This document shows positions 17,184 through 20,531 of a stretch of 24,000 bases of DNA, in pieces. A program made the translations under genes and the position numbers. The notes beneath the pieces are model-generated. The model was not told the DNA's origin and ran no database searches. It saw nothing but the letters and a program-made list of their open reading frames with translations. The stretch is from contig NZ_LR134378.1 of NCBI RefSeq assembly GCF_900637555.1, positions 3,050,784 through 3,074,783 of the forward strand, written 5' to 3'. The stretch is from Lautropia mirabilis (GTDB taxonomy: Bacteria; Pseudomonadota; Gammaproteobacteria; Burkholderiales; Burkholderiaceae_E). Position 1 is the stretch's first letter, and every line of letters starts with the position of its first letter.

Positions 17184-17223
17184 TCAGCCCTTGAAGTAGG
17201 CTTCCAGATCGTCGCTGCCGCCG
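17184..17223. repeat. Left copy of the imperfect direct repeat bounding the islet
   Basis: The 34-nt core at 17190-17223 (cttgaagtaggcttccagatcgtcgctgccgccg) matches 20498-20531 at 32/34. tcagcc (stop plus Gly codon) is also shared. The right copy has an extra 6 nt (ctgcac). Confidence 0.85.
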
Positions 17224-17225
17224 GC
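17184..17225 (-). pseudogene. Orphan duplicate of the 3' end (last 13 codons plus stop) of the peroxiredoxin-glutaredoxin gene
   Basis: Minus strand encodes [13 protein letters not shown], compared with [15 protein letters not shown] at the end of the intact gene (20486..). No glutaredoxin homology upstream of it. Confidence 0.75.
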
Positions 17226-17434
17226 TGGCTCGCGCTCAGAGAAGAATGTTTGAGAGAAACCGGTCAGCAGCAGGCCAGAACCGGGCACGAACCTGTACGA
17301 ACACTTCCCTGCCAGCAACAAGAGCCCCCAGACCCCGGGGGAATCAGTTATCTCGGACCTCAGATGGACCAAGACGCCCGGGAAATCAAACCATTTTCTG
17401 TACACTGGCGACACCTTGACAAACCTTGAAAGCA

Positions 17435-17806
17435 CTACCTCTCTTTCAACCTGTACACGCGTCCGGCAGTAACTTTCTCTCCTCTCCCAACAAAGACATC
17501 GTCAACATCATCGTCAGCGACACGGCCCAATATATACTTTACAGCAGAATCATCCCCTTCATTCTTGCCAAGTCTATAGTACAAAAACAAAACGCCCCTT
17601 TCCTTCGCCAAAGAACTGAAAAACCCCATCCTCGACTCCGGTAATTCAACAGCCCCGTCCGAGGAACAGGAAAACCCATCCCCATAATCAATCCTAGTAT
17701 AAACAAAATACCCAGCGAATTCGCCATGAAAAACAAATCTGAAATATCTGTCTTTCGTTACGAAATTCAATGGTGACTTGCTGCACAAAACACTTATGTA
17801 CGACAT
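17435..17806 (-). CDS. Small AT-rich cytoplasmic protein, candidate immunity/antidote protein (no recognisable family)
   Basis: 123 aa from ATG 17806, preceded by GGGGGAGAG: MSYISVLCSKSPLNFVTKDRYFRFVFHGEFAGYFVYTRIDYGDGF...DDDVDDVFVGRGEKVTAGRVYRLKER. No signal peptide or TM segment. Lies immediately downstream of the secreted precursor gene and has the lowest GC in the window. The TTG start at 17854 in the track is less likely. Confidence 0.6.
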   Translation of the reverse strand: MSYISVLCSKSPLNFVTKDRYFRFVFHGEFAGYFVYTRIDYGDGFSCSSDGAVELPESRMGFFSSLAKERGVLFLYYRLGKNEGDDSAVKYILGRVADDDVDDVFVGRGEKVTAGRVYRLKER

Positions 17807-17820
17807 CACTCTCCCCCAAA

Positions 17821-17841
17821 GGGCCTCATGACTTGAGGCCC
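17821..17841 (-). promoter_or_regulatory. Intercistronic stem-loop between the precursor and immunity-like genes
   Basis: Minus strand GGGCCTCA-AGTCA-TGAGGCCC (perfect 8-bp stem) followed by TTTGGGGGAGAGTGATG. The hairpin foot abuts the Shine-Dalgarno and start of the downstream gene. Confidence 0.5.
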
Positions 17842-17860: not shown

Positions 17861-18331
17861 TCAACGTGGCGACCCATACCAAACATGAGATCCGTTACGG
17901 GGATTTGGGTGAAAATGAGTATAACGAGCCCCAGAACCGGCATGGAACTCACGAATCCCATTTCGACCAGCAATACGGGAGGCAATTGCTCGGCTGGGGG
18001 CCCAAACATTCGTAGCACCACGCGCAATCATGGCCTGCGCAACGCGCTGTGTAACCCAACGCTGCACGATGAATCTTGATGCAGTCATGACCCCAATTGC
18101 GACCAAGGGCGCTACCGAACCCTCAGTCTTCTCCATCTCCTGAGTCGACAGCACGGCCAGCTGCATCGGCTTGCCCGAAGCCTCGAACATGCTGTTGATA
18201 TCATCCTGACTGAAGGTACTGAGCTGGGGCGACAGGGGCGCAGTACTTACAGCGCTTTCACCGGCGTACGCCTGCGTGGAAACCATGCCGACAGCGGCCA
18301 GAACAAGGACCATGCGTTTGATCGTGCTCAT
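17861..18331 (-). CDS. Secreted 156-aa precursor with Sec signal peptide and internal double-glycine-type leader motif; candidate toxin/bacteriocin
   Basis: ATG 18331 lies 5 nt after GGAG. Signal peptide MSTIKRMVLVLAAVGMVSTQAYA|GE. Residues 58-72, LAVLSTQEMEKTEGS, fit the LSxxELxxIxG(G/A/S) leader consensus. The C-terminal 84 aa contain a hydrophobic/amphipathic basic segment and end in REFHAGSGARYTHFHPNPRNGSHVWYGSPR. The 205-aa track ORF start is rejected. Confidence 0.65.
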   Translation of the reverse strand: MSTIKRMVLVLAAVGMVSTQAYAGESAVSTAPLSPQLSTFSQDDINSMFEASGKPMQLAVLSTQEMEKTEGSVAPLVAIGVMTASRFIVQRWVTQRVAQAMIARGATNVWAPSRAIASRIAGRNGIREFHAGSGARYTHFHPNPRNGSHVWYGSPR

Positions 18332-18418
18332 ATAGACTCCATGTGGTCGAACACAATAACAAGCCTCGAAAGACTCCCGAGGCGCCGATGACGGTGTTGC
18401 CTCACCGCCAATCCCTGG

Positions 18419-18465
18419 GGCTGGTACATGATGAAAATCACCATGTACCAGCCTGTTTTTTCCCC
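18419..18465 (+). terminator. Perfect 12-bp hairpin with a T-tract only on the plus (antisense) strand, in the C39-precursor intergenic region
   Basis: GGCTGGTACATG-atgaaaatcac-CATGTACCAGCC followed by TGTTTTTTCCCC on the plus strand. On the minus strand it is preceded by an A-run and followed by no U-tract. Confidence 0.45.
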
Positions 18466-18482
18466 TGTCACTACCCATGACG

Positions 18483-19277
18483 TCAGGGAATGCTTCTGAA
18501 ACTCAGTTGCTGCACCGCACCAACACTCTGCCGCCATGGTGCCCTGGAGAAATACGCTTCTGCCCTGCTCACATCCACCGATGCCGGCAGAACCGCCAGA
18601 AACTTGCCTGCCAGTTCGGGCTGATCCTTGCCATCACGGGTCTGCCACATGTCCAGAAACTGCGCGCGACTGTAGGTGCGATTCCCGAGGCTCGGATCGG
18701 CAAGCCACACCGTGTTGCCACTGATGCCACGCAGTACGCTGAAATGATCGTCCTTGCGTACCTTGATGTACACCACCACCGGCATCTTCAACCGGGCCAG
18801 TTGCTCCCAGCTGGCGGCAAATCCCTGTGCCCGAAAGCCAAACTTTGGCAGAGCGCGGGTCATGTCATCAAAGCTCGCCCGGGCATCGCCCTTGTCCATG
18901 GCCTTCAGCAACTGCTCCTCGGTCAGCTTCTGGCCGTAGAACCCGTTGAGCAACGTAGCCAACGATGCGGCACCACAGGAGTAATCCTGATCCTGCTTGA
19001 CGATCTGCCGGTCACGCAAGGTTTTCCAGCTTTTTACCGGAATCTGCCCCTTCACCACTTCGCTGGAGAGAATGAAGGCTTCCGGTCCGGGTTCAGGCTG
19101 CTTGCGCTTCGGCAGTAACGGAATGGCCTGCTTCCGCCCTTCTTCCTGCTTCGGGCTTCCGCCGGCCTCTCGTTCCCCAGAAGCCGATGAGCCGTCTTCT
19201 GCCCAAACGTCCTGGCTTTGCCACGCTGCAAGGCTCACACTCAGACTGACGACCAGAAGCATTCTGTCTGCAGACAT
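18483..19277 (-). CDS. Stand-alone C39-family cysteine peptidase with N-terminal signal peptide (predicted periplasmic)
   Basis: ATG 19277: MSADRMLLVVSLSVSLAAWQSQDVWA|EDG... C39 hallmarks are present: QDQDYSCGAASLATLLNGF (oxyanion Gln and catalytic Cys), DDHFSVLRG (His), VWLADPSLG (Asp). There is no ABC transporter domain. The track ORF start at 19523 overlaps the upstream gene and is rejected. Confidence 0.8.
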   Translation of the reverse strand: MSADRMLLVVSLSVSLAAWQSQDVWAEDGSSASGEREAGGSPKQEEGRKQAIPLLPKRKQPEPGPEAFILSSEVVKGQIPVKSWKTLRDRQIVKQDQDYSCGAASLATLLNGFYGQKLTEEQLLKAMDKGDARASFDDMTRALPKFGFRAQGFAASWEQLARLKMPVVVYIKVRKDDHFSVLRGISGNTVWLADPSLGNRTYSRAQFLDMWQTRDGKDQPELAGKFLAVLPASVDVSRAEAYFSRAPWRQSVGAVQQLSFRSIP

Positions 19278-19296: not shown

Positions 19297-20175
19297 TCAG
19301 AACGTATACAACCAGTTGACCCGCATCTCGGCTCCCTGCCCGCCGGACGCATTGGTCTTGAGCGTGACGTTGAGGGTATTACCCGTGGCAAACCCATATC
19401 CGAAACCAAGCTGCAGATCTGTAGCGGTCCGATTGATTCCCATTGCGGCACCATTGAAGCGCTCCGCTGTCTGGCGCGTCCATTGCATGCCGGTCGTGAG
19501 TGTGACCCGATCATTGACGGCAAAGCCCACGGAGGGCGTCAGTATCAGCAGGTTGCCGCCCCTGGCAGTATCGGCACCATCACGGTAGCTGCGGCTGAAG
19601 CGGTAGGCCCCCGTCAGTGAAAACACGACCGGATCCAGTGCCTTGTAGGTAGTGAAGCCCAGCATGGCCGACCTGAATGACTTGCTGGATGAGCGCAGGC
19701 GCTGGCTGAGGGCCACTTCGGCAAAGCCAAGAAAGGCTGGGTAATCATCCTCCTCGCGGAACTGGTGGTTGATCCCCGCCCAGGTGTCTGCAAAATGGTT
19801 CAGGCGGTTGCTGCTGCGCCCAGCCGCGTCCCGAACCCGTTCACTGTCGTGGAGGTAACTGGTACGCAGCAGCACCTCGGTTTTGCCGGTGATGCCATAA
19901 CGCAGACCCAGTGTACCGACCAGTGTGTCGCGGTTGCTGGAGCGTTCGCCCACGGCGGTGGGCACCTGTACAAACGACGTCGGCCCGGTTTGTACGGAAA
20001 TGGGCTCGCCGGTAGAGACGCCTGTCTGGTCCACATTGGCGTAGGCAAAGGACAGATCCAGCTTGAATCTGCCCTTGTCGGTAACGAGGTCCTCAACCGT
20101 CAGCGGCAACTCAGCAAACGCTGATGCAGCATGACAAGAAAGCATGAGCAAAAGGACAAAATGTTGGCCACGCAC
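19297..20175 (-). CDS. Outer-membrane beta-barrel protein (resembles the MetA-pathway/'transporter' OMP family)
   Basis: GTG 20175 lies 5 nt after AGGAG. Signal peptide MRGQHFVLLLMLSCHAASAFA|ELP. Alternating amphipathic strand pattern throughout. C-terminal OMP beta-signal ...MRVNWLYTF ends in Phe. The stop is 19 nt before the C39 start. Confidence 0.75.
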   Translation of the reverse strand: MRGQHFVLLLMLSCHAASAFAELPLTVEDLVTDKGRFKLDLSFAYANVDQTGVSTGEPISVQTGPTSFVQVPTAVGERSSNRDTLVGTLGLRYGITGKTEVLLRTSYLHDSERVRDAAGRSSNRLNHFADTWAGINHQFREEDDYPAFLGFAEVALSQRLRSSSKSFRSAMLGFTTYKALDPVVFSLTGAYRFSRSYRDGADTARGGNLLILTPSVGFAVNDRVTLTTGMQWTRQTAERFNGAAMGINRTATDLQLGFGYGFATGNTLNVTLKTNASGGQGAEMRVNWLYTF

Positions 20176-20204: not shown

Positions 20205-20250
20205 ATCATATTTTCACAAGAAAAAACACATTGTCAATATGAAAATATAA
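20205..20250 (-). promoter_or_regulatory. Candidate sigma70 promoter with overlapping inverted repeat (operator) for the islet cassette
   Basis: Minus strand TTGACA (20237-20232)-N16-GAAAAT (20215-20210) with TGT just upstream of the -10. The 9-bp inverted repeat ATATTTTCA (20208-20216) / TGAAAATAT (20240-20248) brackets the -35 and overlaps the -10. Embedded in a strongly AT-rich stretch at 20180-20320. Confidence 0.45.
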
Positions 20251-20485: not shown

Positions 20486-20531
20486 TCAGCCCTGCACCTT
20501 GAAGTACGCCTCCAGATCGTCGCTGCCGCCG
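20486..20531. repeat. Right copy of the imperfect direct repeat bounding the islet (functional 3' end of the gene)
   Basis: See the left copy at 17184-17223: 32/34 core identity plus the shared stop-proximal tcagcc, and a 6-nt indel. Confidence 0.85.

Follow-up and report, generated by a model that had tools for sequence, protein, structure and literature searches.

A Sec-type precursor with an internal double-glycine-type leader in Lautropia mirabilis: a predicted toxin cargo of a nap-like secretion island

Introduction

How might a small protein be processed and released when its double-glycine-type leader lies inside the precursor, behind a Sec-type signal peptide, rather than at the N-terminus? 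This question is raised by a 156-residue precursor protein encoded on the minus strand of a 24,000-nucleotide stretch of Lautropia mirabilis DNA (contig NZ_LR134378.1; "the window" denotes this whole stretch). A sequence-only reading had pointed out the internal leader, a weaker leader-like stretch upstream of it and a His-rich C-terminus that could not be assigned to a toxin family. Our analysis suggests that the precursor is likely to be the cargo of a two-step secretion island of the nap type (Fap-like) and to serve as an interbacterial toxin, a scheme all steps of which we infer.

The nap island of pathogenic Neisseria is a 3.4-kb locus of low guanine-plus-cytosine (GC) content that encodes NapF (a FapF-like outer-membrane protein, OMP), NapP (a periplasmic C39 peptidase), peptides with glycine-glycine (GG) motifs and an immunity protein (Poncin et al. 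2025, PMC11798529). Its named genes, in N. gonorrhoeae, N. meningitidis and N. lactamica, are NapF, NapP, NapA-C and NapI (PLoS Biol, PMC11798529). No Sec signal was recognised on the substrates in that study, cleavage was placed at other GG or GA pairs, and a holin-like protein, NapH, was proposed for crossing of the inner membrane (PMC11798529). In the Fap system of Pseudomonas, FapD is a periplasmic C39 peptidase and FapF a trimeric 12-strand barrel (Rouse et al., Nat Commun 2017, PMC5557850); what FapD cuts, and which sequence it recognises, was left undefined (PMC5557850). The machinery described below is of this already published kind (2025, 2017). A search of the literature on periplasmic C39 substrates, FilB and nap islands returned nothing relevant beyond these two papers.

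Results

Precursor and leader

The precursor gene and its parts are as follows (coordinates are those of the window; aa, amino acids).

17861..18331, minus strand: putative toxin precursor gene; intact open reading frame (ORF) with ATG start, 156 aa plus stop
18263..18331, minus strand: Sec-type signal peptide, residues 1-23 (MSTIKRMVLVLAAVGMVSTQAYA, followed by GE), read from the sequence together with a heuristic; isoelectric point (pI) about 10
18179..18214, minus strand: leader-like block 1, residues 40-51 (FSQDDINSMFEA), degenerate here; predicted short helix 42-49
18116..18169, minus strand: double-glycine-type leader block 2, residues 55-72 (PMQLAVLSTQEMEKTEG-S), placed by conservation; predicted C39 cleavage after S72
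17864..18115, minus strand: predicted mature 84-aa cargo, residues 73-156; unclassified polymorphic-toxin domain

The ATG is preceded, at a distance of 5 nucleotides (nt), by a GGAG resembling a Shine-Dalgarno (SD) sequence. The protein is recorded at NCBI as WP_126348245.1 with the label "hypothetical protein", and it occurs in exactly this form in complete L. mirabilis genomes (ATCC 51599, CP146288) and on many human oral metagenome contigs. It reads MSTIKRMVLVLAAVGMVSTQAYA, then GESAVSTAPLSPQLSTFSQDDINSMFEASGKPMQLAVLSTQEMEKTEG-S, then VAPLVAIGVMTASRFIVQRWV...YTHFHPNPRNGSHVWYGSPR; that is, a Sec-type signal peptide (residues 1-23), an acidic propeptide (residues 24-72) with a terminal double-glycine-type leader, and a very basic 84-aa domain rich in His and Arg. 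The ORF and residue numbers of the sequence-only reading were correct throughout: AYA (residues 21-23) stands before GE, the C-terminal product has 84 aa, and the His residues are H130, H139, H141 and H149. Sec-like features (a Lys/Arg n-region, a hydrophobic core and a small-x-small site) are present in the precursor and in 132 of 142 complete N-termini of its relatives. The precursor has 46 homologous clusters.

Counted back from the predicted cut, the residues fall where that reading had placed them: L58 (-15), L61 (-12), S62 (-11), E65 (-8), M66 (-7), T69 (-4), G71 (-2) and S72 (-1). The core of block 2, LSTQEMEKTEG71-S72, conforms to the consensus LSxxELxxIxGG (Gly at -2, a small residue at -1) at L61, S62, E65, M66, T69, G71 and S72, and a regular expression for the block, run over all six frames of the window (47,996 residues), matches once, at the precursor. 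In an alignment of 27 of the 46 homologous clusters (43-65% identity), E65, M66 and G71 never vary, and conservation reaches at least 90% for L61, S62 and T69 and for most of the C-terminal domain. A wider collection of 191 relatives, with a median cut position at residue 69, has the block in 167 proteins; the -2 position is Gly in every one of these, and the -2/-1 pair is GA in 147, GE in 8 and GS in 4. The family logo reads P-M-Q-L-A-A-L-S-x-Q-E-M-K-E-T-E-G-A, with conservation (in per cent) of L91 S91 x Q66 E98 M100 K59 E71 T99 E84 G100 A88 over its last part. The position of the leader, with the 23-residue Sec-type signal and about 35 further residues ahead of it, is likewise conserved in the homologue alignments. 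We attribute this internal rather than N-terminal placement to the nap/Fap-like context of the island.

The weaker upstream stretch (residues 37-53) has also proved genuine. It is a conserved block (F78 S44 xx D85 xxx L52 F97 E63 Q53, in per cent), its spacing to the main block is fixed at 9 residues in 111 of 139 proteins, and it terminates in a true FGG in 7 distant members, for example LSASDMAFAFGG (9 if GA and GE endings are included). Given that the upstream block is conserved and ends in FGG in distant members, the propeptide appears to contain a tandem pair of leader repeats.

An AlphaFold2 model of the precursor, based on a 27-sequence alignment, has low confidence from residue 22 to residue 72, a part with two short helices (42-49 and 63-68), versus a predicted local distance difference test score (pLDDT) of 81-93 for residues 75-156, suggesting that the predicted cut site lies in an exposed linker. 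Burial of the leader in a globular fold, which the sequence-only reading had named as a reason for doubt, is not seen in the model: the leader is placed in a flexible, low-pLDDT part ahead of the first strand of the folded domain.

What follows the leader differs from protein to protein. An exhaustive profile search of 1.84 billion representative proteins gave 286 matches, many of which align only over the N-terminal module, from profile position 1 to about 70. The 191 collected proteins carry at least 23 unrelated clusters of cargo after the cut site (Gly-rich, Trp-rich, Cys-rich or small globular), and similarity between the precursors of different cargos stops exactly at the predicted cut point. 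The proposal that homologues would keep the leader and vary the C-terminus therefore holds at the level of the superfamily, but not in the immediate family, where the C-terminus is as conserved as the leader. Several metagenomic proteins from other L. mirabilis strains have a near-identical N-terminus, different cargos and different downstream genes in the same chromosomal slot. In N. weixii, two module-bearing proteins with unrelated Gly-rich C-termini, each followed by a small membrane protein, are encoded between the OMP and C39 genes, and the same region contains a copy of the His-rich cargo and of its partner gene.

These data bear on one alternative, namely that a periplasmic His-rich metal-binding protein has acquired a GG-like motif by accident, or that the motif is an artefact of annotation. 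The four His residues of the cargo, all of them within the last 27 residues of the precursor, and the lack of a family assignment would suit such a protein. In 167 proteins, however, both the motif and its position are conserved, the module is common to alternative cargos, and the precursors co-occur strictly with C39 and OMP genes. This conservation and synteny effectively refute the chance explanation, to which we give almost no weight.

Export machinery

Two genes of the island encode the putative processing and export proteins.

18483..19277, minus strand: NapP-like stand-alone C39 cysteine peptidase, 264 aa, with an N-terminal signal peptide; alternative start at 19262
19297..20175, minus strand: NapF-like (FapF-related) outer-membrane beta-barrel protein, 292 aa; signal peptide ending in SAFA before E

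The peptidase matches the C39 family PF03412 (E=2e-24) and is 57% identical to NapP (E=1e-76); its signal peptide reads MSADRMLLVVSLSVSLAAWQSQDVWA, followed by E. A profile search of the Protein Data Bank (PDB) finds the double-glycine protease domains of PCAT1, LahT and ComA. The barrel protein has 41% identity with NapF across 278 aa (E=4e-71), and FapF is the sole match of its profile among solved structures (E=2.8e-7, covering only part of FapF). The gene order is OMP, C39, precursor, partner. No ABC transporter is encoded in the island, which holds only these four components. Every sufficiently long locus with the His-rich cargo also has the OMP, the C39 peptidase and the partner gene.

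The C39 peptidase has its best NCBIfam matches in FapD (88.6 bits, E=3e-25) and FilB (83.1 bits, E=2e-23). Together with the remote likeness of the OMP to FapF, this could indicate that the precursor is a structural subunit of a Fap- or Fil-like fibre, an amyloid or pilus component processed by a FapD/FilB-type peptidase. Both scores are far below the family cut-offs (330 bits for FapD, 475 bits for FilB), though, and the precursor is without repeats of the amyloid type. Genes for FapA, B, C or E are absent from the island, and the diversity of cargos, the partner gene and the association of the cargo domain with Rhs and pretoxin-HINT (PT-HINT) proteins (see below) argue for a toxin. We therefore regard a fibre subunit as very improbable.

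A different possibility is that the leader-like block is not cut at all, and instead is a docking or chaperone segment that targets the protein to the OMP or keeps the cargo unfolded. The protein would then work uncleaved in the periplasm or on the surface, and the C39 protein would act on another substrate or as a non-catalytic binder. Protease-inactive C39-like domains do exist in type I systems, the substrate of FapD is undefined (PMC5557850), and the Thr at -4 would fit as well. The upstream block is conserved even though its GG has been lost in most members, an indication that cleavage need not be the reason for keeping a leader-like block. Against an uncleaved segment, the catalytic residues Q90, C96, H173 and D189 (259-aa numbering) are invariant in all seven C39 proteins that we aligned, Gly at -2 is invariant with a small residue at -1 in nearly all cases, and similarity between different cargos ends precisely at the cut point. 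We consider a docking segment improbable and cleavage by the co-encoded peptidase the better account.

Cargo domain

The predicted mature product has a mass of 9.2 kDa and a pI of 12.0, with 11 Arg, 4 His and no Lys. The sequence-only reading had described a hydrophobic segment followed by amphipathic helices. The AlphaFold2 model does not bear this out; it predicts instead a beta-hairpin (residues 77-93) and two helices (95-103 and 114-121) inside one compact domain, completed by strands at 126-128, 138-141 and 150-152. The highest 19-residue Kyte-Doolittle mean is 1.25, below the grade of a transmembrane (TM) segment. A membrane-inserting toxin with an N-terminal TM helix is not supported, in view of this low hydrophobicity, the predicted beta-hairpin and the conservation of the segment in Rhs-linked versions of the domain.

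The claim of a C-terminal beta-hairpin without the helix of an HNH fold agrees with the model, in which the strands at 138-141 and 150-152 form a hairpin and the protein ends 4 residues further on. The HNH metal finger is a beta-beta-alpha element, a hairpin with the catalytic His followed by a helix that carries a metal ligand. As no helix follows the hairpin here, and as neither the cargo nor its relatives have an HNH-type match in Pfam, an HNH or His-Me finger nuclease was discarded. A RelE/YoeB-like RNase, which the beta-alpha-alpha-beta-beta-beta order and the C-terminal His/Tyr had brought to mind, was considered and set aside, there being no such Foldseek matches.

The judgement that the domain belongs to no recognisable toxin family is borne out by the database searches. 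The cargo family has no match in Pfam or NCBIfam. Sequence profiles of the full-length protein and of the domain alone against the PDB gave best E-values of 0.3 and 0.034, both for irrelevant proteins. Foldseek gave a best E-value of about 1 against the PDB and nothing against BFVD. Within the family, the motif THxH...RNGSHVWYG is conserved in the 27-homologue alignment.

Polymorphic toxin systems, in the sense of Zhang, Aravind and colleagues, include the C-terminal toxins of Rhs/YD-repeat proteins and pretoxin-HINT toxins. Domains of the cargo type stand directly after the Rhs-associated core in the proteins P0141 (TIGR03696, E=9e-23), P0163 and P0179, and after a pretoxin-HINT domain in P0147 (PF07591, E=8e-19); the library-wide E-values of the cargo-domain matches are 1.8e-7 for P0141, 2.4e-7 for P0147 and 5.6e-7 for P0163. 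H139 and H149 are invariant, and H130 nearly so, across all contexts including the Rhs and PT-HINT proteins. This recurrence after Rhs cores and a pretoxin-HINT domain identifies the His-rich domain as a polymorphic-toxin module. A related domain (...YWHYHTGNRNGAHVWYGSPV) forms the C-terminus of a 275-aa Gram-positive protein with a signal peptide and a hydrophobic segment, encoded in an Oscillospiraceae metagenome-assembled genome (MAG; L021:5245-6072), and the toxin domain thus crosses phyla and modes of delivery.

The His/Arg core and the cytoplasmic partner described below hint weakly at an activity that is enzymatic and probably intracellular. If we were to guess, the core would suggest an enzyme that is metal-dependent or directed at nucleic acids.

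Partner gene

The gene downstream of the cargo, which the sequence-only reading had singled out, turns out to be a conserved partner: an ORF of this kind stands just after the cargo in every locus that we examined.

17435..17806, minus strand: 123-aa cytoplasmic partner gene, immunity candidate; SD sequence GGGGGAGAG; assigned by hmmsearch and synteny

A profile built from six other loci finds the ORF with 48.9 bits (E=4e-14, hmmsearch), whereas none of 1000 shuffles exceeded 7.6 bits. Its family consists of 36 clusters, each of them unnamed, with a length of about 120 aa. The protein has no signal peptide or TM segment, and its AlphaFold2 prediction is confident (pLDDT 91.2; predicted template-modelling score, pTM, 0.85). 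Searches of Pfam and NCBIfam, and Foldseek against the PDB, gave no match to its family or fold. A perfect 8-bp stem-loop (GGGCCTCA-agtca-TGAGGCCC) at 17821-17841 separates the cargo stop codon from the SD sequence and start codon (ATG) of the partner, with a possible influence on translational coupling or on the stability of the mRNA. The gene is unannotated in the NCBI records of both complete L. mirabilis genomes, and gene callers either miss it or recognise a C-terminal piece of 64 aa only; the probable reason is its GC content of 44%, which is atypical for the host.

This gene behaves as expected of a cognate immunity protein, and we treat it as a candidate for that function. Its cytoplasmic location implies that the target of the toxin is probably intracellular. 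The ORF after P0141 has no match to the partner profile, so that immunity homology cannot be extended to the Rhs context.

The partner gene also matters for the question of whom the product is directed against. A self-directed role can be imagined by analogy with the Naps: the processed peptide might promote autolysis or programmed death in the producing population, or else damage host cells. The machinery genes are clear homologues of NapF and NapP, the nap study found an autolysis phenotype and no antimicrobial activity (PMC11798529), and the mature product here is strongly cationic (pI 12). The compact 84-aa cargo, on the other hand, is found again as the toxin at the C-terminus of Rhs and PT-HINT proteins, it has a dedicated and conserved cytoplasmic partner gene, and cargo/partner cassettes are swapped between strains at one locus. 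Toxin contexts, partner gene and cassette swapping are hallmarks of an interbacterial toxin-immunity pair, and we favour such a pair for this reason. The gonococcal "peptides", moreover, have the appearance of remnants of such a locus or of its immunity-type proteins. A self-directed role is, in our estimate, unlikely.

The last point comes from a comparison with published Nap sequences. A 94-aa membrane protein of N. weixii (L012:8227-8511) matches gonococcal NapA (PMC11798529 S1/S2 Fig) along the whole length of the latter with 55% identity (E=2e-34). As this relative occupies the position of an immunity gene, NapA may belong with the immunity-type proteins and not be a GG peptide. In N. gonorrhoeae and N. 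meningitidis, the short NapB corresponds to the C-terminal end of the long form found in N. lactamica (L012:6982-7431 was also compared). The long form (PMC11798529, S2 Fig) begins MKKQITAAMMLSMITPAMA...PMQLAELSQKEMKETEG and has a Sec signal, spacer and leader as in the Lautropia precursor, to which it is similar only across the leader block (13 of 21 residues identical). Since the long form contains the full Sec-plus-leader module, the NapB of the pathogens looks like a remnant without an export signal.

Island and distribution

The four genes, all on the minus strand, lie in a 3.3-kb island with 44-60% GC, compared with 65-72% in the flanks. The following elements delimit or accompany it.

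17189..17223, no strand assigned: right copy of a 35-nt direct repeat; duplicated 3' end of a peroxiredoxin-glutaredoxin (Prx-Grx) gene
20497..20531, no strand assigned: left copy of the repeat, inside the 3' end of the Prx-Grx gene
20210..20237, minus strand: promoter-like site upstream of the OMP gene (TTGACA-16-GAAAAT with TG, 10/12), a consensus match only
18363..18383, minus strand: terminator-like hairpin between the C39 and cargo genes, a consensus match only
17325..17341, minus strand: terminator-like hairpin after the partner gene, a consensus match only

The repeats are identical in 33 of 35 positions, are 3308 bp apart and bracket the low-GC island. This arrangement resembles a target duplication of the att type, although no integrase is encoded in the island. 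The duplicated repeat sequence forms the end of an 83-aa ORF (17184-17435, minus strand). A near-perfect palindrome (GGCTGGTACATGATGA-aaa-TCACCATGTACCAGCC; 16-nt arms, 94% complementary) is located at 18419-18453 between the C39 stop and the cargo start; as it has no T-run, it may be an operator. We found no RNA elements or transfer RNA (tRNA) at the insertion site.

Small, low in GC and different from one L. mirabilis strain to another, the island has the features of a horizontally acquired element. We found no clean empty site in L. mirabilis, only full and decayed islands. Several metagenome contigs of the species (L025-L028, L030-L033, L037) have decayed islands in the same chromosomal slot; some of these retain a cargo together with the genes after it, next to an OMP and a C39 gene cut down to fragments of 109 and about 100 aa, and in others only a remnant of 1.7-1.9 kb is left.

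The His-rich cargo is rare. Among 185,579 species genomes, 8 have a clear homologue, namely those of Hydrogenophaga, three Moraxella species, Acinetobacter rongchengensis, Neisseria dentiae and Helicobacter baculiformis, and a Bacteroidota MAG. Plasmids carry it as well, both small ones of the Rep3/Mob type and, in Acinetobacter, 135-kb ones. A search of 50,697 phage records gave no match that would indicate a phage origin. The 7.6-kb contig of A. rongchengensis (L008/L016) is a small Rep3/MobA-MobC plasmid with OMP, cargo, partner, extra small ORFs and C39, adjoining a ParE/PaaA2 toxin-antitoxin pair; a further system is on a 135-kb Acinetobacter plasmid (L029, NZ_CP127913.1). All genes of these plasmid systems except C39 are annotated as hypothetical. 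Moraxella lacunata (L014) and M. nonliquefaciens (L015) have arrays of 5-7 consecutive signal-plus-leader genes with different cargos. The M. nonliquefaciens array adjoins one OMP gene and one C39 gene, and thus amounts to a large bacteriocin arsenal with one export apparatus.

Discussion

From the genes and motifs described above, the following pathway can be proposed. Sec would export the 156-aa precursor, and signal peptidase would take off residues 1-23. In the periplasm, the acidic propeptide (residues 24-72) would offer its double-glycine-type leader helix to the co-encoded C39 peptidase, which would cut after Gly71-Ser72. The freed 84-aa domain would leave the cell, probably unfolded, through the NapF/FapF-like barrel in the outer membrane, and act outside, in the manner of a bacteriocin, as a toxin against neighbouring bacteria without the immunity protein. 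The cytoplasmic product of the downstream gene would protect the producer and its kin.

Several observations weigh against this proposal. The gonococcal Naps, the only relatives that have been studied, had no antibacterial activity and were linked to autolysis (PMC11798529). The residue at -4 of the leader is Thr, where a large hydrophobic residue is usual. Pores of the FapF type are narrow, so that a domain with a confidently predicted fold could pass only in the unfolded state, and the entry of an 84-aa protein into the cytoplasm of a target cell is not accounted for. The folds of toxin and partner match nothing solved, so that an activity cannot be named. A terminator-like hairpin stands between the C39 and cargo genes. 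Finally, the island is decayed in many L. mirabilis strains, with OMP and C39 reduced to fragments, and the system must therefore be dispensable.

The locus is closest to the nap island, which has the same low GC content and size (3.3-3.4 kb), a NapF-like OMP, a NapP-like C39 peptidase with a signal peptide and a partner or immunity gene linked to the cargo. It differs in its cargo (an 84-aa folded alpha/beta domain with a pI of 12, against a cationic helix of 16-36 aa in the Naps), in its partner (a 123-aa soluble protein, against a 45-aa membrane peptide in Neisseria), in the lack of napR and napH, and in its host, an oral commensal of the Burkholderiales. With the Fap system the locus would have in common Sec export, a periplasmic C39 peptidase and a dedicated outer-membrane channel of the FapF type for unfolded substrates. 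In contrast to Fap, the island is without FapA, B, C or E genes, its OMP is shorter (292 aa) and only remotely homologous to FapF, and its substrate has a canonical GG-type site.

The leader itself resembles those of class II microcins and bacteriocins exported by peptidase-containing transporters of the ATP-binding cassette type (PCATs; MccV/CvaB, ComA, LahT, PCAT1) in the consensus residues L-12, S-11, E-8, M/L-7, G-2 and small -1. Cleavage by a C39 domain (predicted here), mature size, the Gly-rich cargos of sister proteins and an adjacent immunity gene (a candidate here) are further similarities. Leaders of the PCAT type, however, are located at the extreme N-terminus without a Sec signal, whereas the Lautropia leader is internal and behind one; and the C39 domain of a PCAT is the cytoplasmic N-domain of an ABC exporter, whereas the Lautropia peptidase is free and predicted to be periplasmic. 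The island encodes no ABC transporter, membrane fusion protein or TolC dependence, and has a FapF-like barrel instead. Polymorphic toxins, in turn, have in common with the Lautropia system a domain shared with Rhs and PT-HINT proteins, the three-histidine core, a small partner ORF after the toxin and the swapping of cassettes behind a constant N-terminal module. Here the delivery module is a 72-aa Sec-plus-GG segment and not a large Rhs, CdiA or type VI or type VII secretion system (T6SS/T7SS)-linked protein, and the toxin domain is in no Pfam or NCBIfam toxin family.

In the literature searched, we found no recognition of substrates that combine a Sec signal with an internal canonical GG-type leader, no description of a module common to a large repertoire of polymorphic cargos, and no description of the Lautropia toxin/partner pair. 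This leads to a wider and more tentative suggestion, to which we assign a little under an even chance: that the bipartite tag (a Sec signal plus one or two double-glycine leader repeats) is the general export signal, unrecognised until now, of a widespread two-step pathway by which Gram-negative bacteria secrete polymorphic bacteriocins and toxins, from Sec through a periplasmic C39 peptidase to a FapF/NapF-type barrel. Periplasmic C39 peptidases of the class to which FapD belongs would then have in this family their long-missing, defined substrate. The gonococcal "Nap peptides", as published, would in part be mis-delineated remnants or immunity proteins of such a locus, and the 84-aa domain with its three histidines would represent a new fold of enzymatic toxin that Rhs and PT-HINT toxins share. 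The tag offers a simple answer to two problems, namely the substrate and recognition sequence of periplasmic C39 peptidases (PMC5557850) and the inner-membrane crossing of nap peptides (PMC11798529).

For L. mirabilis, the cargo and its partner constitute an uncharacterised putative toxin-immunity pair without structural relatives. The compact tag of about 72 aa could serve to secrete small proteins from Gram-negative bacteria. More broadly, nap/Fap-like machinery appears to be a general route for swappable cargos of bacteriocin or toxin type in Neisseria, Moraxella, Acinetobacter (including its plasmids), Hydrogenophaga and Lautropia, a delivery route that is relevant to competition in human mucosal microbiomes.

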